Source: an uncultured Nitrospiraceae bacterium (GTDB taxonomy: Bacteria; Nitrospirota; Nitrospiria; Nitrospirales; Nitrospiraceae). From it: a stretch of DNA of 64,000 nucleotides. The translations under genes and the position numbers were made by a program. Positions 19,603-45,269 of the stretch are shown piece by piece (positions within the stretch are counted from its first letter, which is position 1; every line of letters starts with the position of its first letter). Below the pieces are notes generated by a model, which made no database searches, had not been told where the DNA came from, and saw only the letters and a program-made list of their open reading frames with translations. Where the stretch lies: the NCBI GenBank assembly GCA_963846575.1, contig CAWJWJ010000002.1, positions 576,001 to 640,000 of the forward strand. The letters are read 5' to 3'.

Positions 19603-20856
19603 ATGGCGGCCAAGCGCACGGTCAATCAGCTGGAACAGGCGTTGCGAGAGAAAACCCGCGAGGTCGACGTTCTGCATCGCATTAGCGAGTCCATCAGCAA
19701 TACCCTCGATCTGGAGTCGGTCCTTCGGCATATCGTCGACATGGTCGTCGAGGTGACCAAAGCCGATGCCTGCCTGCTGTACTTGATCTCGGATGGGAGG
19801 GACGAACTCATCCTGAGGGCTTCGAAAAATCCCCATCCTAAATTAATCGGACGGATCACCATCGGGTTGGGCGAAGGGATCACCGGCTGGGTGGCCCGGG
19901 AGCGGACCCGTGTGGTGATTCCGAATAGCGCAAGCGATGATTCGCGATTTAAATTTTTCCATAACCTTCCAGAAGACCGCTATCAGGCGTTTGTCTCCGT
20001 GCCCATTACGACCAAGCAGGAAGTGGTCGGGGTCATCAACGTGCAGCATAAGCGGTCGCGCCGGTATCGTCCGGACGAACTGGCGTTGCTTTCGACGGTC
20101 GCCACACAGGTGGGTGGGGCTATTGAAAATGCACGTCTGTACGATCAAATGACGCGCAAGGCCCTGCAACTCGACACACTGTCGCAGGTGTCGGAAACTG
20201 TGTCCTCGAATCGATTGATCGAGGATGTGTTGCAGCTGATTGTGACGATGACGGCGCAAATGATGGGCTCAAAGATCTGTTCCATCATTTTGCTGGATCA
20301 GGCGAGCGGCGAACTTCGGATCGCCGCCACGCAAAGTTTGAGCGAGCAATACCGGCGCAAACCCAATGTGAGGATCGGTCAGAGCATCAGCGGGCGGGCG
20401 GTTCAGGATCGTCGACCGATCATCGTCCCGGATGTTACGAAAGACAGCAGCTATATGTATCCGGATATGGCAGGGAAAGAGGGACTCTGTTCGCTGCTGT
20501 GCGTGCCGATGCTGGTACGGGAGAAGGCTATCGGGGTCATTAACACCTATACGTCCAAACCACATACCTTCACGAGTGAGGACGTGAAACTCATGCAGGC
20601 CATCGCCAACCAGGCAGCCATTTCGATCGAGCATACGACTTTATTGGAGAAGTCGTTTGAGATGCAGGAGGCCTTGCAGGTCCGCAAGTTGCTCGACCGG
20701 GCTAAGGGATATTTAATGCGGGCGAAACGGTTATCCGAAGACGAGGCCTTCAAGCTGATTCAAAGGCAAAGCATGGACCTCCGAAAATCCATGCGGGAAA
20801 TCGCTGAAGCCATTCTGTTGGCGGGCGAAATCGAAGATCGCGCCGATAAAAAATAG
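19603..20856 (+). CDS. GAF-GAF-ANTAR RNA-binding regulator (putative antiterminator)
   Basis: Two GAF repeats (GEGITGWVA...VPI...VGVINV; GQSISGRAV...VPM...IGVINTY) and C-terminal ANTAR (RKLLDRAKGYLM...LSEDEAFKLIQRQSMDLRKSMREIAEAI). Confidence 0.92.
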   Translation: MAAKRTVNQLEQALREKTREVDVLHRISESISNTLDLESVLRHIVDMVVEVTKADACLLYLISDGRDELILRASKNPHPKLIGRITIGLGEGITGWVARERTRVVIPNSASDDSRFKFFHNLPEDRYQAFVSVPITTKQEVVGVINVQHKRSRRYRPDELALLSTVATQVGGAIENARLYDQMTRKALQLDTLSQVSETVSSNRLIEDVLQLIVTMTAQMMGSKICSIILLDQASGELRIAATQSLSEQYRRKPNVRIGQSISGRAVQDRRPIIVPDVTKDSSYMYPDMAGKEGLCSLLCVPMLVREKAIGVINTYTSKPHTFTSEDVKLMQAIANQAAISIEHTTLLEKSFEMQEALQVRKLLDRAKGYLMRAKRLSEDEAFKLIQRQSMDLRKSMREIAEAILLAGEIEDRADKK

Positions 20857-20863
20857 GGCTCTC

Positions 20864-21826
20864 CTAGGGTGTGCGTTCTTCAGGTGCGGTTGGACGCGGC
20901 ACGACGGAGGGCGAACTCCCCCGATTGAGCTGCTGAGTGTCCAATTGACGTTTGATATCCTGCAGTTCCCTGCGTAGTTCCTCGATCTCTGCATCCTTCC
21001 TTCTCAGATTGTCCTGAATGGCTCGAAGGTCTGTCTCGGGTTCCACTGCTTGCGTTGGCCGCTGGACGGAAGTCGGGCGGGGAGTTTCCCCAGCGAGTCC
21101 CGTCGGCGGCGCAGGGGCGGTCGGAGCGGGCAGTCGTGCCAGTGCATCATAATCAATAATCAGAATGTCCGCCAAGTCCTCGGCAAAGCGTGGTGTAAAA
21201 GACTGGGGGCGCAAGGCTTCCGCAGGAAGAAAGAGGAGATGGCGATTGAGGAGTTGATTGGGCTGGGGAACGCGGCGATTGGGCATGCTGATCGTGTCGG
21301 GGTCATTCGCTCTTCGGCGGTACTCATGCAGAGAAATGTAGAGCGAACGGCCGTATGCGAACACGTGGCCGCTCGTGGTTTCTTTGGCTGACAATTGAAC
21401 GGGTGGTTCGGATGACCCCACTGCAGCGCCAGCTCGTTCCCGATATCCGCCGGTGCCTTCCTGGATCAAGCGAAACCCCACCCGTTGATCTGCGGCAGCC
21501 TGCCTCAGTCCGTCCACGATTGCGGGGGCGAGAAAAGCGACTTCGGACCCTGAAAAGACCGGAACGTTTGGCTGTTCCCGTGAGGTGAGGGCTCTCAGCA
21601 GCCCGGTGTCTTCGTGGATTTTAATGCCCTGTAAGCTGCGCGCGATGAGGGCCTGGTCAAGCCGGATGGGATGGGCTGCCTGAAAGTGGCGGTCAGGAAT
21701 ACGGTCGAGATAGACGGTGCCTTGCTCGGATTGCCGCACAACAAAATCGACTTGTGACCCGGTTGTGCATCCTGTGGCCCAGAGCATCCAGACCAGGGTG
21801 AAGGTGAGAGAGGGAGAGTAGCGCAT
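20864..21826 (-). CDS. Putative lipoprotein with C-terminal coiled coil (paralog of 34995-35906)
   Basis: Signal peptide ending WATG-C; FQAAHP and EVAFLAPAIV...QAAADQRVGF motifs shared with the paralog. Confidence 0.7.
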   Translation of the reverse strand: MRYSPSLTFTLVWMLWATGCTTGSQVDFVVRQSEQGTVYLDRIPDRHFQAAHPIRLDQALIARSLQGIKIHEDTGLLRALTSREQPNVPVFSGSEVAFLAPAIVDGLRQAAADQRVGFRLIQEGTGGYRERAGAAVGSSEPPVQLSAKETTSGHVFAYGRSLYISLHEYRRRANDPDTISMPNRRVPQPNQLLNRHLLFLPAEALRPQSFTPRFAEDLADILIIDYDALARLPAPTAPAPPTGLAGETPRPTSVQRPTQAVEPETDLRAIQDNLRRKDAEIEELRRELQDIKRQLDTQQLNRGSSPSVVPRPTAPEERTP

Positions 21827-21918
21827 GAGAGTTGGCTCCGACTTTGCCGGCGTCCGAGACCGGCGTAGTGTAGCATAGAGACCCCGTTGGAGAGCGAAGA
21901 ACTGGCCAGTCTCCTCCC

Positions 21919-21948
21919 TTGACAGGAACGCCGTCAAAAGCGTATACA
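21919..21948 (+). promoter_or_regulatory. Probable sigma70 promoter of the urea operon
   Basis: TTGACA-N18-TATACA directly upstream of the structured leader. Confidence 0.45.
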
Positions 21949-21969
21949 CCCCACCAGTATGCGTTCCGG

Positions 21970-22069
21970 ATCAGGACAACGCCGTTCTGATTCTGCGTAG
22001 ACATCGATCACGCAGGGGACAATGACGTCCTTTTGGTCCAATGGTTGGACCGGAAGGGCGTTTTTTTTT
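21970..22069 (+). promoter_or_regulatory. ANTAR dual-hexaloop leader with overlapping intrinsic terminator (urea operon)
   Basis: TCAGGAC-AACGCC-GTTCTGA and GGAC-AATGAC-GTCC; 16-bp terminator stem 22025-22061 followed by T9. Confidence 0.8.
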
Positions 22070-22127
22070 GGCCTCTAGCACCTCCGGTCTGGCAGTCAAA
22101 TCGTGTGTAACCAGGAGGGCTATGAGG

Positions 22128-23495
22128 ATGGGCGCACGAACGTCAGGAGGACTCATACTCGGCTCGGTCGTGCTTATGATCGTTGTCTCCGCAGTTCCGG
22201 TGAGCGCAGAAGACCAGAGTGCAGGAGAGTCGGCGGGAGCGGGCCGCCTGAGCCGTGAAGTGGAGACTCCCCCCGCGGTGATTTGCGGCGGCTGCGTCAC
22301 TCCCAGTTTCGCGGGCGAAGGCAAAGGAAGCATTGTTCCCTATGGTCGTATCGAGCTGGACGCGATATACAGCAACCGAAATACGAATCCACTCGACCCC
22401 GGGCAATTCAATGGCTATGCCACCGCCGCAGGCAAAAGCAGCAATGCGTCCTCCACGCTCAATCCTCGCTATAGCGTGTTCGGCCTGCGTGCCGACCGAA
22501 CGGACGGGAAACATACCTTGACTGGTGTCGTCGAAGCGGATTTCTACAGCCAAACCGACAATGCCGGCAATATCTCGCCTCGCCTGCGGTTGGCCAACGT
22601 CAAATATTCTCCCAACAATAGTCGGACGACCATCACGGCAGGCATGGACTGGACGCCGATCATGTCCTCTCATCCAAACCTGATCGATTTCTCCATCATG
22701 GGTTATAACGGGAACTTGTGGCAGCGACTCCCGCAGATTACCGTGAAGCATCAATTTACCGACAACGTGAATGGTCTGTTGACGGTCATGCGATTCGAAC
22801 GCGGATTATCGGCCATTCAGCCGCAGACGCAACGACGAACGTTTCAAGGGGCCGGCGCGGGGGCGGCGCCGGGTAGTTGCGGGACGAGCGGTTTCGGCTG
22901 TTCTGAAAACGCCTTCAACGATCCGGTACAGATGCCCTATGTGGGGACTCGATTTGCCTATACAGGCACGGGTGACCAGGCAGGCTTTATGGTCGCACTC
23001 AATGCCGCGTTTAGGCATTATCGATCGGCGCCGACGGCCGGGGGGATTCCCGCGGGCAACGATATCAATTCGTATCTCGTGGGGGCGGAACTCGCGGTGC
23101 CTTTGACCAACCGGTTGAGATTCACCGGTGAGATTGCCTACGGACAGGCGCTGGGAGTGGAGTTTTTCCGATACGGACAGGAGCGAAACCTGGGCACGGG
23201 CAAATCGATCCGGACCGTGGTCGGCTGGGGAGAGTTGGATTATGCCTTCGATCGGCAGCTCACGCTCATCGCCGGCTATGGGTTCGACAACCCGCTGAAC
23301 TCAGACCTGCGAGGCACCAGCGCCGGGCCTGACACCCAATATGTACTCAATCATCGGACCTACCTGACGGCCGTCCGGCATATTTGGGGCGATTTGTACA
23401 CGTCGTTCGAGTGGAATCACCTCATGACCGAATGGTCCACCGGGGAGCATTTTGCAGGAGACAATTTCATGCTCTCAACTTGGTACAACTTTTAG
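22128..23495 (+). CDS. Putative outer-membrane porin (DcaP-like) heading the urea operon
   Basis: Signal peptide, YGRIELD, VVEADF, RLRLA, QRLPQI beta-strand patterns, C-terminal WYNF. Confidence 0.7.
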   Translation: MGARTSGGLILGSVVLMIVVSAVPVSAEDQSAGESAGAGRLSREVETPPAVICGGCVTPSFAGEGKGSIVPYGRIELDAIYSNRNTNPLDPGQFNGYATAAGKSSNASSTLNPRYSVFGLRADRTDGKHTLTGVVEADFYSQTDNAGNISPRLRLANVKYSPNNSRTTITAGMDWTPIMSSHPNLIDFSIMGYNGNLWQRLPQITVKHQFTDNVNGLLTVMRFERGLSAIQPQTQRRTFQGAGAGAAPGSCGTSGFGCSENAFNDPVQMPYVGTRFAYTGTGDQAGFMVALNAAFRHYRSAPTAGGIPAGNDINSYLVGAELAVPLTNRLRFTGEIAYGQALGVEFFRYGQERNLGTGKSIRTVVGWGELDYAFDRQLTLIAGYGFDNPLNSDLRGTSAGPDTQYVLNHRTYLTAVRHIWGDLYTSFEWNHLMTEWSTGEHFAGDNFMLSTWYNF

Positions 23496-23524
23496 CCTGG
23501 CATGACGGCGAAAGGAGTCTCACG

Positions 23525-24889
23525 ATGATCTCTCCGAAACCACAGAGTACAGACCAGGAGATTGCCACGAGCAAGGCCGAGGCCCTTCCGTCGCGCCGCG
23601 ATTTCCTCTGGCAGAGTTCACGAACCGCGGCCGGCATCGGGGTAGCGGCGTTGCTGGGAAACCTGGGGCATTGGGCATTGTCATATGGGGCCGATAAGGA
23701 ACCGATCAAGGTCGGGGTGTTGCACTCGCTCAGCGGTACCATGGCCATCAGTGAGGTGTCGCTGAAGGATGTCGTGTCGATGGCGGTGGAAGAGATCAAC
23801 GCGAAGGGCGGCCTGTTGGGACGACCCTTGAAGCTGGTCATCGTCGATCCGGCCTCTAATTGGGATCTCTTCGCCGAAAAAGCCAAACAATTGTTAGTGC
23901 AGGATAAGGTGGCGGTGGTGTTTGGTTGTTGGACATCGGTCAGCCGGAAGTCCGTATTGCCGGTGTTCGAGAAGAACAACGGGCTGCTCTTTTATCCGGT
24001 CCAGTATGAAGGGGAGGAATGCTCACGGAATGTGTTCTACACCGGCGCCGCGGTGAATCAGCAGGCCGTGCCTGCCGTGGAGTATCTGATGAGCAAGGAA
24101 GGGGGAGGGTTCAAAAAGTTCTATCTGCTCGGGACCGATTACGTCTATCCGCGCACGACGAACAAGATTCTCCGTGCCATGTTGCTCGCCAAGAAAGTCC
24201 CTGCGGCCAACATCATGGAAGAGTACACTCCGTTCCATCATCAGGATTACCAAACCATCGTCGGAAAGATTAAAAAGTTTGCGGCCGGCGGAGGCGGGTG
24301 TGTGATCAGCACGATCAATGGCGACAGCAATGTGCCGTTCTACAAAGAGTTTGCCAACCAAGGGTTGCGGGCGGAAGATGCGCCTATTATGGCCTTCAGC
24401 GTCGCGGAGGACGAGTTGCGTGGGATGGACAAGACGGCTCTGGTCGGGCATCTGGCGGCCTGGAATTACTACCAGAGCGTCGACACGCCGCAGAACAAAC
24501 AGTTCGTGGCCAATTTTAAGGCCTACTGCAAAAAGAACAATCTGCCGGAGGGTGACAAGCGCGTCACCGACGATCCGATCGAAGCCGCCTACTTTGGCGT
24601 ACATGTCTGGAAGCAAGCGGTTGAGAAGGCGGGCGGCACCGATGCAGATGCGGTACGAAAAGCCGTCTATGGCCAGAAGTTTCCGGCTCCCGGTGGGGAA
24701 ATCATGATGGACGAGGCTAACCATCATACCCACAAGCCGGTGTTGATCGGCGAGATTCTCAAGGACGGTCAATTTAAAGTCGTCTGGCGCTCGAAGGGGT
24801 TGGTCAAACCGGAACCCTGGAGCGAATACACGAATCCGGAAAAGGGGTGTGACTGGGTGAAACATCAAGGGACCTATAAGAGGGCCTGA
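23525..24889 (+). CDS. urtA: Urea ABC transporter substrate-binding protein (Tat signal)
   Basis: SRRDFL twin-Arg; HSLSGTMAISE, FGCWTSVSRKSVLP, YPVQYEG. Confidence 0.96.
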   Translation: MISPKPQSTDQEIATSKAEALPSRRDFLWQSSRTAAGIGVAALLGNLGHWALSYGADKEPIKVGVLHSLSGTMAISEVSLKDVVSMAVEEINAKGGLLGRPLKLVIVDPASNWDLFAEKAKQLLVQDKVAVVFGCWTSVSRKSVLPVFEKNNGLLFYPVQYEGEECSRNVFYTGAAVNQQAVPAVEYLMSKEGGGFKKFYLLGTDYVYPRTTNKILRAMLLAKKVPAANIMEEYTPFHHQDYQTIVGKIKKFAAGGGGCVISTINGDSNVPFYKEFANQGLRAEDAPIMAFSVAEDELRGMDKTALVGHLAAWNYYQSVDTPQNKQFVANFKAYCKKNNLPEGDKRVTDDPIEAAYFGVHVWKQAVEKAGGTDADAVRKAVYGQKFPAPGGEIMMDEANHHTHKPVLIGEILKDGQFKVVWRSKGLVKPEPWSEYTNPEKGCDWVKHQGTYKRA

Positions 24890-24938
24890 TGGGGAAGCGA
24901 GAATCAGCGCGCTGGATGCGGGGGAGGGTGCGCGGCGA

Positions 24939-26480
24939 ATGAGGCGCATCACCGGGATGGCAGTGCTCTGGTGCTGTGTGATCTGGGGTATGACCGACGC
25001 ATTGGCGGCGGAGGAGCTTGTCGGCGTCACGCCGTCAGCGGCGGTTGAGCAGGCGCTCAAGGATCTCTCGAGCGATGAGGAAACAACGCGCGAGCAGGCG
25101 ATTCATGTCCTGATCGAGCAGGGCGATGCGGCCGCTCTCCCGCGCTTGGACGCATTGCGAGAGAATGCGGATCGACGCCTACGCATGGCCATCAAGCCGG
25201 TGGCCGATGCCTGGCGTCACCGCGCAAACCTGTCCAGTCCGGATGCCGATGCCCGGCGTTCGGCGGCGATCGACCTGGGGACGAGCGGACGGGGTGTGGC
25301 CATTCCCTGGTTGGAATCTGCGGTCGACACCGAATCCCATCGGTGGGTTCGGTATGCGATGCAGGAGTCGATCCAACTCCTGAAACTCGCCTCGGATAAT
25401 CCTGTGATCAAGGCGCAGGCGGCGGCAAAGCTGGGCGAGCTGCGCAGCCAGAATGCCGTTCCGGCGCTGAAGGAATTGGTGCAGGTGGCCAAGGAATCGA
25501 CTAGCACCGAGGATCAGCATAACGTCGCGGGGGTGGCGGCTGTCGCCATCGATCGGATCGAATCCTGGAATGTCTGGTCCACGGCGATCGAAACGTTGTT
25601 CCGCGGCATCAGTCTGAGTTCGATTCTCCTCATCATGTCCGTCGGGCTCGCGATCGTCTTCGGATTGATGGGCGTCATCAACATGGCCCACGGCGAACTG
25701 ATGATGATCGGCGCCTATGCGACCTTTGTCATCCAGGAATGTTTTAAGCTGTATCTTCCTCCGGCCTGGTTCGATGCCTATTACCTGACTGCCCTTCCGG
25801 CCGCATTTCTGGCGGCGGCCTTGTTCGGATTGATCCTGGAAGCGACCGTCATCCGGTTTCTATATGGCCGCCCGCTCGAAACGATGCTAGCGACCTGGGG
25901 AGTCAGCCTCATTCTTATTCAGGCGGCGCGAATTTATTTCGGGGATCTGACGGCGGTGGCGGCTCCCGTTTGGCTTAACGGCGGCACGCAGGTCATGGTG
26001 GGAGTGTTTCTGCCCTTCAATCGCCTGTTCATCATCGGGCTTTCCATCCTCTGTGTCACCGGCATTTATTTGTTACTGTTCAGGTCACCTGTGGGACTCC
26101 GGGTGCGGGCCGTCACGCAGAATCGACACATGAGCGCCTGTCTGGGTATCCCCACCAGAAAAGTCGATGCCTACACCTTTGCCTTCGGATCCGGCCTGGC
26201 CGGCATCGCAGGCTGGGCCCTGACCCTGGTGGGGAACGTCGAGCCGGGACTCGGGCAGAACTACATCGTGGACTCCTTCATGGTAGTCGTGACCGGCGGT
26301 GTCGGTAAACTTGCGGGGACCATTATTGCCTCCCTGGGAATCGGGGGGTTGAATAAGCTCATGGAGCCGAGTCTGGGAGCCGTCTACGCAAAAGTCTTGA
26401 TCCTGGTGTTGGTGATTCTCTTCCTGCAGCGGCGGCCGTCGGGGCTGTTTGCGATTCAAGGGCGTCACGCCGAAGGATAG
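24939..26480 (+). CDS. urtB: Urea ABC transporter permease with HEAT-repeat N-terminal domain
   Basis: GLMGVINMAHGE, LYGRPLETMLATWG, YIVDSFMVVVTGG. Confidence 0.94.
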   Translation: MRRITGMAVLWCCVIWGMTDALAAEELVGVTPSAAVEQALKDLSSDEETTREQAIHVLIEQGDAAALPRLDALRENADRRLRMAIKPVADAWRHRANLSSPDADARRSAAIDLGTSGRGVAIPWLESAVDTESHRWVRYAMQESIQLLKLASDNPVIKAQAAAKLGELRSQNAVPALKELVQVAKESTSTEDQHNVAGVAAVAIDRIESWNVWSTAIETLFRGISLSSILLIMSVGLAIVFGLMGVINMAHGELMMIGAYATFVIQECFKLYLPPAWFDAYYLTALPAAFLAAALFGLILEATVIRFLYGRPLETMLATWGVSLILIQAARIYFGDLTAVAAPVWLNGGTQVMVGVFLPFNRLFIIGLSILCVTGIYLLLFRSPVGLRVRAVTQNRHMSACLGIPTRKVDAYTFAFGSGLAGIAGWALTLVGNVEPGLGQNYIVDSFMVVVTGGVGKLAGTIIASLGIGGLNKLMEPSLGAVYAKVLILVLVILFLQRRPSGLFAIQGRHAEG

Positions 26481-26506
26481 TCTCGAGCAGGGAGAAGGGA
26501 GAACTG

Positions 26507-27643
26507 TTGGTACCAGAGTCGAATGTGGAGCGGCGCGAAGGCACGGTCTTTTGGTTGGTCGGGTTTGTGCTTCTCTTTGTCCTGCCGGTGCTCAACGTGT
26601 TGCCGGCGGAGGATTCCTGGCTGCGTGTCTCCGATTTCGCGCTGAATCGATTTGGAAAGTTCCTGGCCTTTGCCATTCTGGCGCTCGGGCTCGATTTGAT
26701 CTGGGGATACGCAGGCATCCTCAGCCTGGGGCAGGGCGTGTTCTTCGGCTTGGGCGCCTACTGCATGGGTATGCATCTGATGCTCGCGATCGGAAGTGAG
26801 AGCGTCTACGGCAGCACCTTGCCGGACTTCATGGTGTGGAATCAGGTTACGGAGCTACCTTTTTTCTGGACGCCCTTTTACAGCTTTCCCGCGGCCGTCC
26901 TTGCGGGCCTGCTGGTTCCTGCAGGCTTCGCGCTTCTATTCGGCTTCCTCGCGTTTCGCAGCCGTATTCGGGGTGTGTATTTTGCCATTATCACACAGGC
27001 GTTGGCTCTTATGGCCTGGCTGGTCTTCAACCGGAACGAAACAAACCTGGGGGGAACGAACGGTCTCACCGACTTCAAGACGATCGTGGGTTTTCGTCTG
27101 GCCGAGTCCGGCACCCAGCTGGCGCTCTATGTCATCACGGTGCTGTGTCTAGGCGGAGCTTATCTGCTCTGCCGCTGGATCATCGCCTCGCGCGCCGGCC
27201 GGGTCCTGATCGCCATTCGCGACAGCGAGCCGCGCGTTCTCTTCTCGGGCTACTCGCCGGCCAATTACAAACTATTCGTCTTCGTGGTCTCGGCGGCGCT
27301 GGCGGGGCTCGCGGGAATTCTCTACGTTCCGCAAGTCGGCATCATTACCCCGGCGCAGATGGGCGTGTTGCCCTCGCTTGAAATGGTGATCTGGGTCGCG
27401 GTGGGCGGTCGCGCGACCCTGGTCGGCGCCATTGTCGGAGCGGTCGGGGTGAACCTCGGACGCAGCATTCTCACCAATCACTTTCCGGAGTTCTGGCCAT
27501 TCTTTCTGGGCGGGCTCTTTGTCGTCGTGGTGCTGGTATTCCCTGACGGGGTTATGGGCGTCACCAGAAGAGTCAGTGAAAAAATGTCGGAATGGACCGT
27601 TCGTCAGCGAAAGGCTCAGGGCGTCGAGGAGGAACGGACATGA
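26507..27643 (+). CDS. urtC: Urea ABC transporter permease
   Basis: LDLIWGYAGILSLG, LPDFMVW, GGTNGLTDF, IWVAVGGR. Confidence 0.95.
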   Translation: MVPESNVERREGTVFWLVGFVLLFVLPVLNVLPAEDSWLRVSDFALNRFGKFLAFAILALGLDLIWGYAGILSLGQGVFFGLGAYCMGMHLMLAIGSESVYGSTLPDFMVWNQVTELPFFWTPFYSFPAAVLAGLLVPAGFALLFGFLAFRSRIRGVYFAIITQALALMAWLVFNRNETNLGGTNGLTDFKTIVGFRLAESGTQLALYVITVLCLGGAYLLCRWIIASRAGRVLIAIRDSEPRVLFSGYSPANYKLFVFVVSAALAGLAGILYVPQVGIITPAQMGVLPSLEMVIWVAVGGRATLVGAIVGAVGVNLGRSILTNHFPEFWPFFLGGLFVVVVLVFPDGVMGVTRRVSEKMSEWTVRQRKAQGVEEERT

Positions 27644-28407: not shown

Positions 28408-28461
28408 GCGGCCCCGCCCGAACTCTGCGTGAATCTCCCGGGGAGTCACCGGAACAACACG

Positions 28462-29766: not shown

Positions 29767-29792
29767 CGCATGACGTGTGACGAGGGCGGGAT

Positions 29793-35976: not shown

Positions 35977-36006
35977 TTGACAGCCGATTCGGCCTGGTGC
36001 TATATC
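35977..36006 (+). promoter_or_regulatory. Probable sigma70 promoter of the nadE-amtB-gln operon
   Basis: TTGACA-N18-TATATC with TG extended -10. Confidence 0.45.
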
Positions 36007-36021
36007 ATCGCCACGCTTTCT

Positions 36022-36116
36022 GGGGACAATGGAGTCTCCGACGGGTACGCGGTCAAACATGGCGCAGGACAACGACGTCCTCTGATCCACCCTGTGGGTC
36101 CGAGGACGTTTTTTTT
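36022..36116 (+). promoter_or_regulatory. ANTAR dual-hexaloop leader with overlapping terminator (nadE)
   Basis: GGGGAC-AATGGA-GTCTCC and AGGAC-AACGAC-GTCCT; terminator stem 36075-36109 followed by T8. Confidence 0.8.
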
Positions 36117-36265: not shown

Positions 36266-38035
36266 ATGCCACCCTTACGAATCGCCATGGTGCAGATGAA
36301 TCCCACGGTGGGCGACCTGTCGGGCAATGTCCGCCGTATCGTGGCCTGGATCCGTGAGGCTCGGCGCGCTCAGGCTCACGTCGTCGCATTTCCCGAACTC
36401 GCCATCACCGGCTACCCGCCAGAAGACCTGCTGTTTAAAACTCGCTTCATCACTGATACCCAGCTGGCATTAAAGGCCGTGGCGGCCGAAGCCCGCGGCC
36501 TCGTTGTCGTGGTGGGTTATGTCGGCCAAGGCGCCTCAACGGTCTCCTTGCCGGCTAGGCCATCATCCCCATCGGCCGATCGACATGATCTGTACAATGC
36601 GGCGGCTTTGCTGTTTGATCGCCGGATCGTGGCCAGTTATTGCAAGCGAGAGTTACCTAATTACGGTGTATTCGACGAAAGCCGGTATTTTCAGCCCGGC
36701 TCTCGCCTTCCTCTGCTGCAGGTGAACGGTACGACGGTCGGGGTGAATATATGCGAAGACATCTGGTCTCCCGACGGACCGACCGGAGCCCAGGCCGCGG
36801 CGGGCGCCGAGGTGATCGTGAATATCAATGCCTCTCCCTTTCATGTGGGCAAGAGTCGGACGAGAGAGCAGATGCTGGCTACGCGGGCTCGGGACAACCA
36901 GGTGCTCGTCACCTATACGAACACCGTCGGCGGGCAGGATGAACTGGTGTTCGACGGCTGCAGCGTGATCGTCGACCAGACCGGCGAGGTTGTTGCGCGG
37001 GGCAAGGCATTTGAGGAAGATTTTCTGGTGGCGGATCTCAATGGCGCGGCAGTCTCTCGGGGACGTCTGGCGCAGGGCCGGAAGAAGCCCCTGCCACCGC
37101 GCGTGGCGGCACTAATCGACCGGATTGAGGTCCGACTGCCGGTGAGGAAGTCGCGGCCGATCGTCGTACCGGCCCTGGAGCCTCCGCTGGAGTGCCTGGA
37201 TGAGGCCTATCGGGCGCTGGTTCTTGGAGTGCAGGATTATGTCCGGAAGAATGGCTTCAAACGTGTCGTGATCGGATTAAGCGGCGGTGTGGACTCGGCC
37301 CTGACCGCTGTCATCGCCGTGGACGCGCTTGGGCCTGAGAACGTGCTCGGCGTGTTCATGCCCTCACCCTATACCTCCCGTGCCAGTCGCGAAGACGTCG
37401 CCGATCTCGGCCGCCGCCTCCGTATACAGGTCGACACACTCTCCATCACGGCCACCTTTAACGGCTATTTGCGCGCTCTCGCCAGGACCTTCGAGGGCCA
37501 TCGGCCTGACACGACGGAGGAAAACATTCAGGCCCGTATCAGGGGCAATCTCCTGATGGCCTATTCGAACAAATTCGGCCACCTGGTGCTGACCACCGGC
37601 AACAAGAGCGAGATGAGCGTCGGCTACGCGACGCTTTACGGAGATATGGCGGGAGGATTCGCGGTCATCAAGGATGTTCCGAAGACGATGGTGTATGAAT
37701 TGTCGCATCTGCGGAATTTGATCGGTCCGGCGCCGGTCATCCCTAAACGCATTCTGGAGCGCCCGCCGACCGCGGAACTCCGCCCCGATCAAAAGGACGA
37801 GGACAGTCTCCCGCCCTATGTCGTGCTGGATCCCATTCTGAAGGCCTATGTCGAAGAAGACCGTGCGCTCGAAGACATTGTGGCCATGGGATTCGAGCGT
37901 GAGACGGTGGCGCGCGTGATCGCCATGGTGGATCGGAGCGAATATAAACGGCGGCAGGCCCCGCTGGGGATCAAGATCACACATCGGGCATTCGGCAAAG
38001 ATCGGCGCATGCCGATTACAAACGGGTATCGATAG
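36266..38035 (+). CDS. nadE: Glutamine-dependent NAD+ synthetase
   Basis: Nitrilase domain (FPEL...GYPPEDL, LPNYGVFDE, ICEDIW) plus synthetase domain (GLSGGVDS, ENIQARIRG, TGNKSE). Confidence 0.96.
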   Translation: MPPLRIAMVQMNPTVGDLSGNVRRIVAWIREARRAQAHVVAFPELAITGYPPEDLLFKTRFITDTQLALKAVAAEARGLVVVVGYVGQGASTVSLPARPSSPSADRHDLYNAAALLFDRRIVASYCKRELPNYGVFDESRYFQPGSRLPLLQVNGTTVGVNICEDIWSPDGPTGAQAAAGAEVIVNINASPFHVGKSRTREQMLATRARDNQVLVTYTNTVGGQDELVFDGCSVIVDQTGEVVARGKAFEEDFLVADLNGAAVSRGRLAQGRKKPLPPRVAALIDRIEVRLPVRKSRPIVVPALEPPLECLDEAYRALVLGVQDYVRKNGFKRVVIGLSGGVDSALTAVIAVDALGPENVLGVFMPSPYTSRASREDVADLGRRLRIQVDTLSITATFNGYLRALARTFEGHRPDTTEENIQARIRGNLLMAYSNKFGHLVLTTGNKSEMSVGYATLYGDMAGGFAVIKDVPKTMVYELSHLRNLIGPAPVIPKRILERPPTAELRPDQKDEDSLPPYVVLDPILKAYVEEDRALEDIVAMGFERETVARVIAMVDRSEYKRRQAPLGIKITHRAFGKDRRMPITNGYR

Positions 38036-38052: not shown

Positions 38053-38158
38053 GACCGACAATGACGTCGGTCAGCGAGGCTGGCAATGGCGCCAGAGGAT
38101 AACAGATCGTGGCCTCACCTTGAGGCTGACGGAACAATCTTTCTTATTCTTTGGGAGG
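38053..38158 (+). promoter_or_regulatory. ANTAR dual-hexaloop element upstream of porin-amtB
   Basis: GACCGAC-AATGAC-GTCGGTC, 7-nt linker, CTGGC-AATGGC-GCCAG; alternative helix 38092-38102/38144-38154 reaches the SD. Confidence 0.8.
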
Positions 38159-38162
38159 TGCC

Positions 38163-39059
38163 ATGCAAGCGCTCGGAAGAGGATTTGTGCGGAGGTGGGT
38201 CCGGGGAATCGTGGTAGCGGCAACGCTGTTGGCGGGCTCGAACGGTCAGGCGCAGGATGTCGAGGGAGTGGCACCTCAGGTGCTCGACAGCTCGATGGAC
38301 ACGACCAAGCATCCGGTGGCCGTCACCATGGCGATGCAAGCTGATAGTTTTTTCGGGTTTAATCCATCGATTTATGGGACGTATGGTTTGACGGATAACA
38401 TCGCGCTCGCGTTTAACTTTACCTATTGGACGATGATCAGTGGAGTGGGAGTCCACGACAACGCGCCATGGCTGGAAACGGACATGGGGCTCAACTTCAC
38501 CTTCCTCCAAAAGCGGTTGTCCGTGACACCCATGTTCGGGTTCGTTCATGGCAGCCTGCTCTCCTCTCGCGGAGGATTCTTTCCCAATGGCGGTGGAAGT
38601 GTGAACGAACGTACGACGGCATTCGAAGGTGTTGTCCCGAATCTCACCATGAACTACCTGGACAGTCGCCTAGAAGGGGAATTCTATCTGGGCTACTACA
38701 AAGCGATCCGGAGCGAAGGCGGCAGCGGCGGCGGAGGCGCGATCAATTGCAGCAATCCCGGAGGTGCCAATTGCTTGGGGCCGGCTCTGGGTGGGGGTCG
38801 CGGCACCTGGGACTTCCTCCATTATTGGGTAAGCGCGGGTGTTCGTTTGAACAGCATGTGGTCGATGGGGGCTCATTATGAGCATTTGCTGACAACACGT
38901 GACAGCAGTGCTCCGGGGGCGGCTCAGGACTACTATCGCTGGATCGGGCCCTATGTCGAAATGAAACTGCCTGGCAGCATGGCGTTTCGATTTACGGCCG
39001 GAAAAGACCTGACCGACAATCAGGATTTCTACAAACTGAAGTTTACGAAGACCTTTTGA
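38163..39059 (+). CDS. Putative outer-membrane beta-barrel protein upstream of amtB
   Basis: Signal peptide, amphipathic aromatic-rich strands, C-terminal YKLKFTKTF; SD GGGAGG. Confidence 0.65.
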   Translation: MQALGRGFVRRWVRGIVVAATLLAGSNGQAQDVEGVAPQVLDSSMDTTKHPVAVTMAMQADSFFGFNPSIYGTYGLTDNIALAFNFTYWTMISGVGVHDNAPWLETDMGLNFTFLQKRLSVTPMFGFVHGSLLSSRGGFFPNGGGSVNERTTAFEGVVPNLTMNYLDSRLEGEFYLGYYKAIRSEGGSGGGGAINCSNPGGANCLGPALGGGRGTWDFLHYWVSAGVRLNSMWSMGAHYEHLLTTRDSSAPGAAQDYYRWIGPYVEMKLPGSMAFRFTAGKDLTDNQDFYKLKFTKTF

Positions 39060-39141
39060 GTTCGGCCAGCCGCGTGAGGCCAGGGCGAGGAAAGGCGGCA
39101 CCTTTCCGGCCCCGGCTTCCCGATGCGAAGGAGGCGCGATC

Positions 39142-40467
39142 GTGACCATTTTGAAACGTTCCGGCATCCTCCTCTGTACGGGGTTAGGACTGCTCATGGC
39201 GTTGGTGATAGGAATTTCCGATGCCGGGGCGCAGAGCGCGGCGTTGACAACCGATAGCGGCGATACGGCCTGGGTGTTGGTGTCGTCAGCATTTGTGCTC
39301 GCGATGCTGATGCCCGGCCTCGCCCTGTTTTACGGCGGCCTGGTGCGAAGTAAAAACGTGCTCGCGACGATCATGCAGAGCGTGATGATCCTAAGCGTGG
39401 TAAGCGTACTGTGGGTTCTCTTCGGATACAGCCTGGCTTTCGGGCCGGATAAGGGCGGGGTGATCGGCGGCTTGGACTGGGTCGGGCTCAGCGGAGTCGG
39501 TGCCGAGCCTCATCCCACTTATGGGCCGACGATTCCTCATCAGGCGTTCGTCCTGTTTCAATTGATGTTCGCCGCGATCGCACCGGCCCTCATCACCGGG
39601 GCCTTTGCGGAGCGGAAGCGCTTTACCTCGGTGGTGCTGTTTGCGGCAATCTGGTCGGTCGTGGTCTATGTCCCGCTCGCACACTGGATCTGGGGGGGCG
39701 GATGGCTGGCCAAGCTTGGTGCGTTGGATTTTGCCGGCGGGGCCGTGATCCACATCAGCTCCGGCGCGTCGGCTCTGGTTTGTGCCGTCATATTGGGCAG
39801 GCGGCGAGGATATGGGACGGATTACATGGCTCCTCACAACCTACCGATGACGCTGCTTGGAACCGGATTCCTGTGGTTCGGGTGGTTCGGGTTCAATGGC
39901 GGCAGCGCGCTGGGTGCGAATGGGCTTGCCGTCTCGGCCATCCTCGCGACCCATACGGCCGCGGCGATGGGAGCCATGGCCTGGTGCGGGGTCGAGTGGG
40001 CACATCGCGGCAAACCGACCGTGCTCGGGGTGGCCAGCGGCGCAGTGGCGGGGTTAGCCACAGTGACGCCTGCAGCAGGCTATATCAGTCCGCTGTTCGC
40101 TCTGGCGATCGGAGCCGTGGCTGGAATGGCCTGCTACGCGGCGATTGTCTGGAAGGGGCGATTCGGCTATGATGACTCGCTTGACGTCGTCGGGATCCAC
40201 GGTGTCGGAGGGGTGATCGGGATTCTCGCCACCGGAATCTGCGCTAGTAAAATCATCAACCCGGCCGGTGCCGATGGGCTCTTGTATGGCAATCCCGGCC
40301 TCCTCGGCGTCCAGCTTCTCGTAGTGGTCGTGACGGCGATTTTCTCCATGGCCGGCACATTCGTCATTCTCAAACTGGTCGATTCGATGACGGGTCTGCG
40401 AGTGTCTTCTGAAGAGGAAGCGACCGGATTGGACTTAAGTCAACACAACGAACGAGCCTATTCGTGA
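39142..40467 (+). CDS. amtB: Ammonium transporter (Amt type)
   Basis: PGLALFYGG, DFAGGAVIH, WFGWFGFNGGS, DDSLDVVGIHG (twin His). Confidence 0.97.
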   Translation: MTILKRSGILLCTGLGLLMALVIGISDAGAQSAALTTDSGDTAWVLVSSAFVLAMLMPGLALFYGGLVRSKNVLATIMQSVMILSVVSVLWVLFGYSLAFGPDKGGVIGGLDWVGLSGVGAEPHPTYGPTIPHQAFVLFQLMFAAIAPALITGAFAERKRFTSVVLFAAIWSVVVYVPLAHWIWGGGWLAKLGALDFAGGAVIHISSGASALVCAVILGRRRGYGTDYMAPHNLPMTLLGTGFLWFGWFGFNGGSALGANGLAVSAILATHTAAAMGAMAWCGVEWAHRGKPTVLGVASGAVAGLATVTPAAGYISPLFALAIGAVAGMACYAAIVWKGRFGYDDSLDVVGIHGVGGVIGILATGICASKIINPAGADGLLYGNPGLLGVQLLVVVVTAIFSMAGTFVILKLVDSMTGLRVSSEEEATGLDLSQHNERAYS

Positions 40468-40503
40468 ATGACGCCATCGGCCGAGCGCGGTCGGCGATTC
40501 TAG

Positions 40504-40851
<348 letters not shown>

Positions 40852-40853
40852 GT

Positions 40854-43538
40854 ATGTCTCAGCCACCAGAGAGAGGTTCGCAGATGGTGCAGGACGCAGC
40901 CCCTGAGGCGGGGCCGCATCTGCTGGCCGAACAGCGTGGGGCGATTCATCAACGGCTCCTGGCGGGTGCGTCGGGAGATGAGGTGGTCGCTGCGACGACG
41001 GATCTGGTTGACGGGCTGATCGTCGGGCGATACCGGACTGCGGCGCGAACCGGCGGAGAGGCGCTCACGACAGCCGGATTTCAACACTGTTGTCTGATCG
41101 CATTGGGGGGGTACGGTCGACGTGAGTTGGCGCCCCACTCCGATATTGATTTGATGTTTTTGTTTCACTCCGATGCGGCCAAGGTGATACCCGACCTGGT
41201 GAAACAGGTGCTTCACCCTCTGTGGGACAGCGGGTTTCAGGTGGGCCACAGTGTCCGGACGATCCAGGACTGTGTGGATTTGGGGCTGGCCGATCTGACA
41301 GTCCGGACCTCGATGATGGAAGCGCGGTTTCTCGCCGGCAGTGCGGAGTTATTTCAGCAATTCCATGCGCGTTATATCAAAAAAGTCGTGTCGAGACGGT
41401 GCGATGCCTATCTGGAGCAGAAGGTTATCGAGCGGCAGCGCGAGTATGAAAAGTTCGGCGAGACGGTGTACCTGCTGGAGCCGAACGTCAAGAAAAGCAA
41501 AGGCGGTTTGCGCGACCTGCACCTCCTGCAATGGGTCGGGTTGGCCAGATACCAGGCTCCCACGATCCGGGAACTGTCTGATCGCGGAATCATGTCCCAG
41601 GCCGATTATCGGGCGCTGAAAGAGGCGCGGGATTTTCTCCTACGCATCCGGGCCTTTCTCCACCTTCGGGCCGGCATGGCGCAGGAAATTCTCACCTTCG
41701 ACGAGCAGGTCTGGTTGGCTAACCAACTCGGATTCACGGATCGTCCCCATTTGCTGGCGGTTGAGCAGTTCATGCAGCAATATTACCGCCATACGATGGG
41801 GCTTCATGCTGCCTCGATGCGTTTCCTCGAGCGCTGTCGGCGCCGCTCGTGGCGGCAGCGGCTGGTCCGATGGTTGCCATCTCCGCGTATTGATCAGTAC
41901 TTCATCGTTGACGGTGAAGCGTTGACCGTGCCGGTTGAATTGCGCTCCCAGGTGTTGGATCGGCCGGCCTCGCTCCTGAGGCTATTCGACCTGGCACGGT
42001 CGCGAAAACTCAGTATCGATCCGTCGCTGCTGGAGGACATTCACCGCCACGCAGAGATGTTGTCGGTGGAGGGGTTCCGCACACCGGAAACAGGTCGCAC
42101 CTTTCTATCGATTCTGGCGGGACCGGGCACGGCGCGGACGTTGGAAGCCATGCATCGAGCCCATCTGCTGGAGAAGCTGGTGCCGGCCTTCTCGCGGGTG
42201 CGAGGGCTCATGCAATTCAATCAGTACCACAAATATACGGTGGACGAGCATAGTCTCCTCGCAGTGGCGAAGGCCGAAGCTCTGGCGGAGCATCCTGGCG
42301 TGCTGGGGGAGGTATACCGGGAGATCAAGCGCAAGGACGTGCTGCATCTGGCCGTGCTGCTCCACGATTTAGGTAAGGGCCACGAGGAAGACCATAGCGA
42401 AGTCGGCAAGCGTTTGGCGGAAGAGACGGCCGCTCTGCTGGGATTTGATGATCGGGATACGCGTACGCTCGTCATGCTTGTCCATCGCCACTTATTGATG
42501 GCCCATACGGCGTTTCGACGCGATCCTTACGATGAAAAAGTCCTGCTGCCGTTTGCCCGCGAAGTGGGTACGCCGGAAGTGTTGCGCAAATTGTTGGCCC
42601 TGACGGCGGCGGATATCGCGGCGGTCGGTCCGGATGTGCTGACGAAGTGGAAAGAGTCCCTCCTGATCGAACTATATCTCCGTGCCATGCAGGAGGTATC
42701 CGGCGAGCGAGAGACGGTCGATGAACCGCAACGACTGGCGCGCGTGGTGGCCGAGGTCGCGTCGCAGCCGGGGTCCGGTGCGAATCTTTCCATGGACAAA
42801 TCGTGGATGCAATCGGAGTTGGAACAATTTCCATTGCGCTATGTGTATGGAACGACGGCGCGTCGCATCGCCGCGCATTTGGCTGCGATACGTCGTCTGC
42901 ACGTCGGCGGAGTCGTCATCGACACCGAGTTTAATGCGCAACTGGGCACCTGTGAATACGTCGTACTGGCACACAATGATCTGACTCCCGGATTATTCTC
43001 GAAAATCGCCGGCGTGATGGCAGCGAGCGGCTTGCAGATCCTGGATGCCCAGATCGTCACACGCAAGGACGGCATCGTCGTCGATACCTTCCAGGTTGCT
43101 GATCCCGACTATCAAGGCGCGCCTCCTGCGGACCGGCGGGAGTCAATCGGTCAGCGAATCGAAGAGGTATTGACCGGGCGCCAGACCATCGAGGCGATGA
43201 TGCGTCGTGGAGCCAGGCTCCATATGGGACGGTCGTTTCCGGCGCACCGGCAACCAGCCGAGGTGCGGATCGATAATGAGACGTCTGATCGATATACCAT
43301 TCTCGATGTGTTTGCGGATGATCGGCAAGGGTTGTTGTTTGTCATGACCAATGCCATTTTTCAGCTGGGCTTGTCGGTCCATGCGTCACGGATTTCCACC
43401 CGTCTCGATCAAGTCGCGGACGTGTTTTATGTGACCAGTATGGATGGAAAGAAGGTGGAGGATGCCGGTCGCCTGGAATCAATCCGGACGGCGATCCTCA
43501 ACGAGATTGAGACGTTTCTCGGTGCCAATGCGGCGTAG
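40854..43538 (+). CDS. glnD: [Protein-PII] uridylyltransferase/uridylyl-removing enzyme
   Basis: GGYGRRELAPHSDIDL, EPNVKKSKGGLRD, HD domain (HKYTVDEH, LLHDLGKG), two ACT domains. Confidence 0.97.
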   Translation: MSQPPERGSQMVQDAAPEAGPHLLAEQRGAIHQRLLAGASGDEVVAATTDLVDGLIVGRYRTAARTGGEALTTAGFQHCCLIALGGYGRRELAPHSDIDLMFLFHSDAAKVIPDLVKQVLHPLWDSGFQVGHSVRTIQDCVDLGLADLTVRTSMMEARFLAGSAELFQQFHARYIKKVVSRRCDAYLEQKVIERQREYEKFGETVYLLEPNVKKSKGGLRDLHLLQWVGLARYQAPTIRELSDRGIMSQADYRALKEARDFLLRIRAFLHLRAGMAQEILTFDEQVWLANQLGFTDRPHLLAVEQFMQQYYRHTMGLHAASMRFLERCRRRSWRQRLVRWLPSPRIDQYFIVDGEALTVPVELRSQVLDRPASLLRLFDLARSRKLSIDPSLLEDIHRHAEMLSVEGFRTPETGRTFLSILAGPGTARTLEAMHRAHLLEKLVPAFSRVRGLMQFNQYHKYTVDEHSLLAVAKAEALAEHPGVLGEVYREIKRKDVLHLAVLLHDLGKGHEEDHSEVGKRLAEETAALLGFDDRDTRTLVMLVHRHLLMAHTAFRRDPYDEKVLLPFAREVGTPEVLRKLLALTAADIAAVGPDVLTKWKESLLIELYLRAMQEVSGERETVDEPQRLARVVAEVASQPGSGANLSMDKSWMQSELEQFPLRYVYGTTARRIAAHLAAIRRLHVGGVVIDTEFNAQLGTCEYVVLAHNDLTPGLFSKIAGVMAASGLQILDAQIVTRKDGIVVDTFQVADPDYQGAPPADRRESIGQRIEEVLTGRQTIEAMMRRGARLHMGRSFPAHRQPAEVRIDNETSDRYTILDVFADDRQGLLFVMTNAIFQLGLSVHASRISTRLDQVADVFYVTSMDGKKVEDAGRLESIRTAILNEIETFLGANAA

Positions 43539-43587
43539 GACGCAGGGAGTGGGTAGTCATTTCATCGGGGGTTGAAAGGAGGAGGGG

Positions 43588-44997
43588 ATGAACGTTCGTG
43601 AGGTGTTAGAGTTTGCAAAGAAGAACAAGGTCCAGGTCGTGGACTTAAAATTCGTGGACCTGATCGGCACCTGGCAGCATTTCACGATTCCAATCAGTGA
43701 GCTGACCGAGGGTCTGTTCAAGGATGGTTCCGGGCTTGACGGATCATCGATTCGAGGCTGGCGCGCGATCAACAACAGCGACATGCTGCTGGTGCCTGAT
43801 CCGACCACCGCCTTCCTCGATCCCTTCTGTTCCGTGCCGACCCTGAGTCTCATCGGCAATGTCGTCGATCCGATCACGCGGGAAACCTACGATCGGGATC
43901 CTCGTTTTATCGCACAGAAGGCGGAGAAATATCTCCAGAGCACCAAAATCGGCGACATCTCCTACTGGGGCCCCGAAGCCGAATTTTTCATTTTCGACCA
44001 TGCGCGCTATGACCAGACGAATCACAGCGGCTACTACTTCATCGATTCCGACGAAGGCGTGTGGAACATGGGTCAGGAAGGCGTGAACCTAGGCGGCAAA
44101 ATCCGTCACAAGGAAGGGTATTTTCCGGTCCCGCCGACTGACACGCAGCAGGACATTCGCACTGAAATGGTGCTGGAGATGGAAAAGGCTGGCATCGCGA
44201 CCGAAAAACATCACCATGAAGTCGCTACGGCAGGTCAGGCTGAAATCGATATCCGTTTCGACAGCCTGGTCAAAACCGCTGACAAAATGATGATGTTCAA
44301 GTACATCGTCAAGAACGTCGCGCGGCGACACGGCAAGACGGCCACCTTCATGCCAAAGCCGATCTTCGGTGACAATGGTTCGGGCATGCATACGCACCAG
44401 AGCATCTGGAAAGAGGGCAAGCCTCTCTTCGCCGGGAAGGAATATGCCGGGGTGTCCCAATTGTGCCTGCATTACATCGGCGGCATTCTCAAGCATGCAC
44501 CGGCGCTGGCCGCCTTCACCAATCCTTCGACGAACTCGTACAAGCGGTTGACGCCTGGGTTTGAAGCGCCGGTACTCCTGGCCTATTCGAGTCGCAACCG
44601 ATCGGCCGGTATCCGCATTCCCATGTATTCACCGAGCCCCAAGGCGAAGCGTATCGAAGTACGTTTCCCGGACCCTGCGGCGAACCCCTATCTCGCCTTT
44701 GCCGCCATGCTCATGGCCGGTTTGGACGGTATCGAGAATAAGATTAATCCAGGCGAGCCGGCTGAGAAGGATCTGTACGATCTCGAGGCCAAGGAAGCCG
44801 CCAAAATTCGAACCATGCCAGGAAGTCTGGATGAGGCGCTCAGTCACCTCGAAAAGAACCACCAGTTCCTTCTAAAAGGCGGGGTTTTCAGCGAAGATTT
44901 GATCGAATCGTGGATCAGCTACAAGCGCAGCAAGGAAGTCGATACGATGCGCTTGCGGCCCCATCCCTATGAATTTTTTCTGTACTACGACGTGTAG
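43588..44997 (+). CDS. glnA: Glutamine synthetase type I (adenylylatable)
   Basis: DGSSI, HHEVA, FMPKP...[20 protein letters not shown] adenylylation loop. Confidence 0.99.
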
Positions 44998-45019
44998 TGA
45001 TAATTTCCTGTTCAGACTC

Positions 45020-45048
45020 TTGACGAATCGAACGAAGGATGGTAGAAA
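45020..45048 (+). promoter_or_regulatory. Probable sigma70 promoter of the FNT-cynS-nirA operon
   Basis: TTGACG-N17-TAGAAA with TG extended -10. Confidence 0.45.
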
Positions 45049-45066
45049 TTCAACCCGTAGGTGAAA

Positions 45067-45269
45067 GGAGGCAATGACGCCTCTATCGCCCGCACCAAAT
45101 ACCAAGTAAACGGACAAAGGCGTCCGTCATTCTTTCGAGAGTGGCGGACGCCTCTTTATTTTCAGCCGACGTTGTGGTCGGCATTCCAAAAACAAGCGGG
45201 GTCTTCCCCGACTGGCTGAGCAGGACAATGGCGTCCTCATCCCGACAGCGGGGTGGGGACGTTTTTTTT
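45067..45269 (+). promoter_or_regulatory. Triple-hexaloop ANTAR leader with two tandem terminators
   Basis: Loops AATGAC (45073), AAAGGC (45116), AATGGC (45227); terminators 45118-45162 (UUCG loop) and 45231-45269 (T8). Confidence 0.85.

Follow-up and report, generated by a model that had tools for sequence, protein, structure and literature searches.

A putative ANTAR antitermination regulon over the nitrogen-acquisition cluster of an uncultured Nitrospiraceae bacterium

The DNA analysed here, referred to as the window, is a stretch of 64,000 nucleotides (nt) from the 4.2 Mb genome of an uncultured Nitrospiraceae bacterium (GCA_963846575.1, contig CAWJWJ010000002.1), and all coordinates are positions in it. 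Homolog names assign this nitrite-oxidising bacterium to Nitrospira. The window carries a regulator gene encoding two GAF domains and an ANTAR domain, followed by operons for nitrogen acquisition. The operons are preceded by RNA segments with small hairpins that have six-nucleotide loops (hexaloops); the upstream hairpin of a pair is termed P1 and the downstream one P2. The features of the locus, with the basis of each assignment in brackets where there is one, are as follows.

19603..20856 (+): regulator gene downstream of aroB, GAF-GAF-ANTAR, 417 residues (Pfam, own-genome family search, NCBIfam)
21919..21948 (+): promoter candidate 1, sigma70-type, TTGACA-18-TATACA (sequence; same box at similar distance in 69/73 leaders)
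21968..21993 (+): leader 1 P1 hairpin, loop AACGCC (hairpin scan)
22014..22033 (+): leader 1 P2 hairpin, loop AATGAC, excludes the terminator (folding)
22024..22069 (+): intrinsic terminator T1, 18 pairs, U9 (folding)
22122..34987 (+): target operon 1, a porin-like gene, urtABCDE, a small lipoprotein-like open reading frame (ORF), ureABC and ureFGD
35977..36008 (+): promoter candidate 2, sigma70-type (sequence)
36021..36040 (+): leader 2 P1 hairpin, loop AATGGA (hairpin scan)
36066..36081 (+): leader 2 P2 hairpin, loop AACGAC, excludes the terminator (folding)
36074..36116 (+): intrinsic terminator T2 (folding)
36266..38035 (+): nadE, glutamine-dependent NAD synthetase, start inferred, single copy
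38053..38095 (+): internal short-linker pair, P1 at 38053-38072 and P2 at 38080-38095, linker 7 nt
38086..38165 (+): predicted helix against the ribosome-binding site (RBS), in which 38086-38093 (P2 loop and 3′ arm) pairs with 38157-38164 (folding)
38163..44997 (+): DUF6733 porin-like gene, amtB, glnB, glnD and glnA, each single copy
45020..45048 (+): promoter candidate 3, sigma70-type, TTGACG (sequence)
45067..45084 (+): leader 4 P1 hairpin, loop AATGAC (hairpin scan)
45110..45162 (+): leader 4 P2 hairpin at 45110-45127, loop AAAGGC, overlapping terminator T4a at 45119-45162 (folding)
45222..45269 (+): leader 4 P3 hairpin at 45222-45237, loop AATGGC, overlapping a second terminator, T4b, at 45230-45269
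45309..48465 (+): target operon 3, an FNT/NirC-like transporter gene, cynS, a 64-residue ORF and nirA

For operon 1, the names porin, urtB-E and ure are assigned from sequence likeness, not from a library scan.

The first-pass annotation of this DNA reported nine hexaloop hairpins in four leaders, and each is found where it was placed, with the loop assigned to it and a closing C-G pair. The loops start at 21978 (AACGCC), 22021 (AATGAC), 36028 (AATGGA), 36071 (AACGAC), 38060 (AATGAC), 38085 (AATGGC), 45073 (AATGAC), 45116 (AAAGGC) and 45227 (AATGGC), on stems of 5-10 bp. The stated invariance of A1, A2, G4 and the closing pair holds within the window, whereas A2 and the closing C vary in the P1 loops of some relatives. 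Four hairpins (22021, 36071, 45116 and 45227) share their 3′ strand with an intrinsic terminator, as had been described; the loop is shared as well, and a U-tract follows. At all four sites the terminator is the free minimum-free-energy fold, with a P2 closing-pair probability of about 0, and keeping the small hairpins formed takes 6.5-13 kcal/mol relative to that fold. P2 overlaps and excludes the intrinsic terminator at 4/4 terminators, but not at the 38060/38085 pair. The four leaders are better read as three terminator leaders, each behind a promoter candidate, while the fourth (38060/38085) is internal to the nadE transcript and looks translational.

Relatives were drawn from 151 genomes of the family including the window's own (genomes are coded G, loci L, genera g and families f). 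The covariance check suggested in the first-pass annotation bears out the RNA elements, as both mutually exclusive folds covary across 52 leaders and the hexaloop pairs are kept in relatives. In this alignment, which is limited to loop spacings of 36-47 nt and holds related sequences whose shuffle counts are not probabilities, the P1+P2 fold of 52 distinct leaders is 90.9% paired (slid controls, 40-46%) with 79 two-sided changes against 32.5 when shuffled (0/500), and the terminator base is 95.2% paired with 59 two-sided changes against 12.0 (0/500). A wider set of 99 distinct P2-terminators was gathered by P2 sequence, with P1 then chosen by loop letters alone. A P1 candidate lies 28-62 nt upstream in 73/99 of them, compared with 7% of background windows, and P1 stems are paired to 96-99% at positions 2-4 with differing base pairs (69 distinct P1s). 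Of the remaining 26, 16 belong to tandem leaders as their second terminator; among the other 10, the majority have a variant-loop P1 or are themselves P1s. All five 3′-strand bases of P2 pair into the terminator in 93/99 cases. The P1-P2 linker measures 13-38 nt (median 25, 71 leaders); 0/71 linkers are ≤12 nt, and 0/99 P2-terminators have a closer P1. The tandem P2-T4a/P3-T4b layout of leader 4 is likewise conserved in relatives. The hairpins precede nitrogen genes in 18/20 20-kb loci from diverse genera. Leader targets vary among genomes yet are nitrogen-related (BBP2 porin-amtB, an NMT1-like ATP-binding-cassette binding protein with cynS, amtB, glnA), and some leaders precede sensor kinases or sigma54 activators.

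A paired-hairpin scan of the whole genome, with a pattern that requires C at loop position 6 and is therefore blind to the nadE pair, returns three pairs, all in the cluster; five shuffled genomes gave 1, 0, 0, 0 and 0. The covariance model, trained on the 52 leaders, yields four sense matches in the window's genome, three of which belonged to the training set. All lie in the cluster, and one further match overlaps one of these sites on the antisense strand. Neither the pair scan nor the model, which misses short-linker pairs, finds further regulon members elsewhere in the genome. No Rfam family matched the leaders. An Rfam match to RF02514 (5_ureB_sRNA; 30875-31167, minus strand, antisense inside ureC, 76.6 bits) was set aside as unrelated to them and probably reflects urease coding-sequence likeness.

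Three leaders begin 50-60 nt after a TTGACA/G box (21919, 35977 and 45020) that is accompanied by a plausible −10 element. A TTGAC/TAGAC box occurs within 95 nt before P1 in 69/73 distinct related leaders and in 47/664 background windows, whereas 0/73 have a sigma54-like box in the same interval. A sigma54-type 9/10 match lies farther upstream of leader 1, at 21833, and there are 11 such matches across 19-46 kb. Palindromes of the NtcA, TnrA/GlnR and NtrC types are not found near the four leaders. The best ntrC score in the genome is 458.7 against a family cut-off of 558.6, with many sigma54-type activators present. A generic promoter and terminator scan performed at chance level and recovered 1/2 terminators within its range.

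The GAF-GAF-ANTAR gene named in the first-pass annotation is confirmed by Pfam; it starts 6 nt after aroB, and 1.12 kb separate its end from the first loop. Its PF03861 (ANTAR) match scores 68.9 bits against a cut-off of 27.3, and a family search identifies it as the sole ANTAR gene in the genome. GAF and ANTAR are the only families matched in Pfam, with neither a receiver domain nor a NIT domain. The predicted model (predicted local distance difference test 83, predicted template-modelling score 0.54) features two GAF domains, a long helix (325-375) and the ANTAR bundle. When the regulator is aligned to EutV, 6 of the 11 RNA-contact residues listed in PMC8934654 are identical, 3 are conservative replacements and 2 are changed. 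Its existing annotation (NITMOv2_1249) goes no further than a conserved GAF/ANTAR protein whose function is unknown.

The sensor half most resembles PtsP (EI-Ntr). In NCBIfam the top match is to that protein's N-terminal GAF (PRK11061 N-terminus, E 5.5e-39), followed by the NifA N-terminus (E 2.8e-29), and the EI-Ntr GAF structures 3ci6 and 3trc are matched in the PDB with E 3e-22 and 7e-17. Each GAF is 34% identical to a PtsP GAF in pairwise comparison. The single-domain structures fit best to PtsP GAFs (template-modelling scores 0.84-0.86, 26-30% identity), while cyclic-nucleotide GAFs reach ≤21% identity. An uncharacterised Geobacter GAF (3e0y) outscores PtsP, which is the closest characterised match. 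The EI-Ntr GAF is described as a glutamine sensor in several proteobacteria, where it steers a phosphorelay and not RNA (PMC4848567). Judged from this likeness, direct binding of glutamine and/or 2-oxoglutarate by the GAFs would be the likeliest signal, and we give it about an even chance. A full-length ptsP match was not found in the window's own genome. Elsewhere, ptsP adjoins the GAF-GAF-ANTAR gene at L223:7198-9462 and L233:10701-12956, and in L233 it stands behind a hexaloop-terminator.

Full-length orthologs with 76-97% identity are present in 128/150 other genomes of the family (129/151 with the window's own), in 14/14 sister-family genomes, in 2 genomes of f3 and in 12/13 of the deep family f13. 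Homologs with 43-56% identity occur in Omnitrophota, Acidobacteriota, Elusimicrobiota, Planctomycetales-labelled and deltaproteobacterial records; nadE, amtB, glnB or glnA-like neighbours are seen in 13/38 distant loci, several with similar hairpin-terminators and two beside ptsP. A representative-protein search was dominated by poly-GAF proteins, with 4 full-length orthologs among the top 150. Four loci of deeper-branching families (L147, L152, L154 and L156) have one hexaloop plus terminator before glnA or nadE and no clear P1, an arrangement that fits a single-hexaloop minimal target.

The regulator and its RNA sites are absent together in one lineage of complete ammonia oxidisers (comammox). 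Among the 151 genomes, amoA is found in 32, with 17 in g10, 14 in g18 and 1 in g11. Clade A comammox is reported to use Rh and clade B Amt transporters (PMC6311188), and because of this split we call the g10 group clade-A-like and the g18 group clade-B-like. In the amoA-positive g10 genomes, the ANTAR domain and an intact amtB are absent in 17/17 (G148 holds a broken amtB), and glnD is absent in 16/17, G076 having a partial match. The motif occurs in 0-1 copies each, 3 in total against 5 in the reversed control, and a covariance-model match is absent in 16/17. In four ANTAR-less g10 genomes, the syntenic site reads aroB-nadE-glnB-glnA and lacks leaders, as do the urea loci. The 7 amoA-negative g10 genomes keep the gene, amtB and glnD with 3-5 motifs each, and amoA-positive g18 genomes have the gene in 14/14 and the motif in 13. 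The joint absence in g10 is probably one loss event. G148, which lacks the gene, retains a leftover leader in which the P1 stem is broken and the P2 loop altered. This amoA-positive, single-contig genome has amtB, glnD and nirA in fragments (L056/L149, C1:2440000-2459000); it may represent an intermediate stage of cluster loss, although some of the breaks could be sequencing errors. G010 of g11 (C55, C161, C224; bin 90% complete, 310 contigs) has an amoA score like that of the g10 group and keeps ANTAR, amtB, glnD and the leaders; it may be a comammox that branched early, or the bin may be mixed.

The 38060/38085 pair starts 17 nt past the nadE stop. It was considered as a terminator leader and rejected, as the downstream hairpin misses P2, the U-rich tract is offset and there is no upstream promoter candidate; in 26/26 loci of the genus no candidate is found in the 200 nt upstream of the short-linker pair. 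In the folds, the U-rich tract pairs with a purine run after P2, while the P2 loop together with its 3′ arm base-pairs with the last part of the porin gene's Shine-Dalgarno sequence, the spacer and the start codon. Holding P1+P2 lowers the median cost of opening the RBS region from 14.3 to 7.4 kcal/mol, with a drop in 28/28 such leaders and from 21.1 to 8.2 kcal/mol in the window's own; no such drop is seen in its three terminator-type leaders. The variant turned up in genera g1 (27/39 genomes) and g12 only. On balance we favour the prediction that the short-linker pair is a translational activator that frees the porin RBS, and the support for such a switch is moderate. In the clade-B-like loci L063, L064, L066, L069 and L071, a second tight pair with 18-nt loop spacing follows a terminated BBP2 porin-amtB leader and shows neither a terminator nor evident RBS pairing.

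We are confident that these elements form an ANTAR antitermination regulon over the nitrogen cluster. The central claim of the first-pass annotation, dual-hexaloop targets read by the adjacent protein, is supported by the covariation, the sole ANTAR gene, the contact residues and the joint absence. Three transcripts would start at housekeeping-type promoters and end by default at the leader terminators. The GAF-GAF-ANTAR protein, expressed behind aroB, would be turned on when the cell is short of nitrogen; nitrogen limitation is the likely ON state. It would bind the A1/G4 hexaloops, P1 first and P2 on its emergence, and keep P2 folded so that no terminator forms; by homology, such binding and read-through are very probable. 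Read-through would then give urea uptake and hydrolysis, NadE, AmtB, PII, GlnD and glutamine synthetase, and nitrite and cyanate assimilation, the nitrite/cyanate operon passing two terminators in series. On the short-linker pair in the nadE transcript, the same protein would free the porin RBS.

Published expression data fit control by nitrogen status. With nitrite as the sole nitrogen source, the ortholog in N. moscoviensis stands at 235 reads per kilobase per million (RPKM), amtB_1/glnB/glnD/glnA at 1199-2324, cynS at 1731, nadE at 191 and urtA at 73 RPKM (PMC6606698). The nitrite reductase of N. japonica is cited there as off on ammonia addition, and its expression is confirmed in PMC5767232. 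The N. moscoviensis values suggest that a second promoter lies beyond nadE in that species or that RNA stability differs there.

The signal is less settled than the RNA switch. It may reach the same protein and RNA switches through a partner, PII with or without GlnD-dependent uridylylation, acting on the GAFs as in AmiC/NasS or PII-NifA control, a reading we consider unlikely. It draws on the presence of glnB and glnD within the regulon, the lack of a glnD match in 16/17 genomes without the ANTAR gene, the second rank of the NifA N-terminus in NCBIfam and the frequent position of homologs in other phyla beside amtB-glnB. Yet f13 keeps the regulator while 5/5 tested genomes have no glnD match, and in three f13 genomes, one among those five, a hexaloop-terminator stands before glnA (weak model matches, E 0.008-0.02); this argues against an obligatory GlnD relay. 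Moreover, glnB is retained at the four inspected ANTAR-less loci, and the GAFs are nearer to EI-Ntr than to NifA. A complex prediction for a PII trimer with the GAF-GAF part (score 0.12, mark 0.32) is evidence neither way. Slightly less probable again is that the GAFs sense an inducer or another cue, such as nitrite, cyanate, urea, redox state or a cyclic nucleotide, instead of internal nitrogen status. NasR-type ANTAR proteins are substrate-induced (PMC12591593), tandem-GAF folds of cyclic-nucleotide proteins lead the structure search, and in N. moscoviensis the urea genes are weakly expressed under conditions in which others are strongly expressed. Set against this, the targets across phyla are a generic nitrogen-starvation set (glnA, GSIII, amt, PII, nadE, ptsP) that is also found in lineages without a nitrite-oxidiser gene set nearby, there is no NIT domain, and the single-domain fit is best to PtsP GAFs.

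That the terminators are ordinary or constitutive attenuators, with hexaloop hairpins that arise by chance or are read by another factor, is very improbable. Lone hairpins of the pattern are indeed frequent by chance (105 in the genome, 55-73 in shuffled ones), but pairs are confined to this cluster, P1 covaries despite having no role in termination, the motif and the gene are absent together, the orphaned leader decays, and the genome has no second ANTAR protein. Several observations weigh against the antitermination regulon as drawn here. Since g10 probably lost the system only once, its 17 genomes are not 17 independent tests. G097 has the gene with no motif or model match, and the gene is missing from five fragmented amoA-negative genomes, of which four carry 1-6 copies of the motif. 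EutV contacts R168 and R177 are not kept, and linkers of 13-38 nt exceed the EutV limit, so that the EutV model is not transferable unchanged. A GAF identity of 30-34% is too low to read the ligand. The N. moscoviensis levels of nadE and urtA, set beside those of amtB-glnA, do not indicate uniform co-induction, and because nadE, glnA, glnB and glnD are single-copy, T2 has to be leaky unless glnA has a further promoter. In the short-linker leaders, which are closely related in sequence, the mean unpaired probability from Shine-Dalgarno to AUG rises modestly and not in every leader.

The mechanism itself is known from EutV, NasR and Geobacter GnfR, as are ANTAR nitrogen regulons and ANTAR translational control. 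In Geobacter sulfurreducens, GnfK/GnfR provides an ANTAR antiterminator for several nitrogen operons including glnK-amtB, and the conserved GnfR site CAGGCAANGGCGCC is nearly identical to the hexaloop hairpin found here (PMC2995071). GnfR, however, is a phosphorylated response regulator under the sigma54 master system GnfL/GnfM, whereas the present protein has its own tandem GAF sensor and the promoters of its predicted targets look sigma70-type. The eut leaders of Enterococcus faecalis, read by EutV, share the dual A1/G4 hexaloops, P2 over the terminator and most RNA contacts (PMC3369931, PMC8934654), but their linker is 5-12 nt as opposed to 13-38 nt here (PMC3369931). With a linker of 14 nt, EutV is severely impaired (PMC3369931), a limit established for that protein and not a definition of the family. 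EutV also has a receiver domain and a kinase, both missing here, and the present system adds tandem-terminator and predicted anti-RBS variants; the absence of a receiver domain places the protein outside the two-component class of EutV, GnfR and Rv1626. Klebsiella oxytoca NasR, a one-component ANTAR protein acting on nitrite assimilation at nasF, recognises loops AAUGGC/AAAGGC as found here (PMC3369931 supplement). It differs in its NIT sensor for nitrate/nitrite, its single operon and its 9-nt linker, compared with GAF-GAF and a whole assimilation cluster. Multi-operon ANTAR nitrogen regulons have been predicted in Desulfotomaculum and Pelobacter (PMC3369931); Nitrospira, Leptospirillum and Thermodesulfovibrio were not found in the supplements of that paper, whose alignment figures may hide matches. 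Mycobacterial ANTAR RNAs are repressed in translation by start-site overlap, while binding here is predicted to free the RBS (10.1101/660928). The linkage of nadE with PII genes is already known, Nitrospirae included (PMC7196632), and there are good descriptions of the Nitrospira nitrogen genes as a cluster (PMC6311188, PMC6606698). A literature search, with subscription journals largely outside its coverage, returned no description of this system or of the regulation of the cluster in Nitrospira, nor any printed account of the sensor, the long 13-38 nt linker, the translational variant or the distribution across lineages.

Some further features of the locus and its relatives are recorded here. 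The 64-residue ORF between cynS and nirA (46676-46870, +) has a good RBS, overlaps the nirA start and has, by eye, the look of a small winged helix. Two related lipoprotein-like genes without a Pfam match bracket the urea operon (20864-21949 and 34995-35945, both on the minus strand), and homologs recur beside leaders in many relatives. A plasmid comparison gave no match. Leaders stand before dCache-PAS sensor kinases in L062, L067, L039 and L090, which suggests that these kinases are a further regulatory layer under ANTAR control. Sigma54-dependent activators directly follow glnA at L048:9295-10473, L049:9487-10656 and L119:3886-5412, that of L048 with a short-spaced hairpin pair in front, and an ANTAR-to-sigma54 cascade is possible in some genera. 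In L032 and L042, a divergent urease operon (57-62% identity) lies reversed behind the urt genes and would therefore escape the control of leader 1.

The named protein, the exact RNA sites and the predicted 3′ ends would allow in vitro testing without Nitrospira genetics. If the proposal holds, the system would provide a characterised sensor of the GAF-ANTAR kind, a long-linker RNA with which to test whether ANTAR proteins bind their hairpins successively, and perhaps a case of ANTAR activating translation. In metatranscriptomes, the ratio of leader 3′ ends to read-through might be used to gauge the nitrogen status of nitrifiers. More tentatively, the GAF-GAF-ANTAR family may be the main nitrogen-status regulator of Nitrospirales, some Omnitrophota, Desulfobacterota-like lineages and others, its EI-Ntr-type GAFs sensing glutamine/2-oxoglutarate and its action confined to RNA through long-linker antitermination and translational activation, in place of NtrC, with clade-A comammox having discarded it together with AmtB and GlnD. 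The absence in clade-A-like comammox suggests that regulated nitrogen scavenging was given up there, whereas the clade-B-like genomes kept the system.

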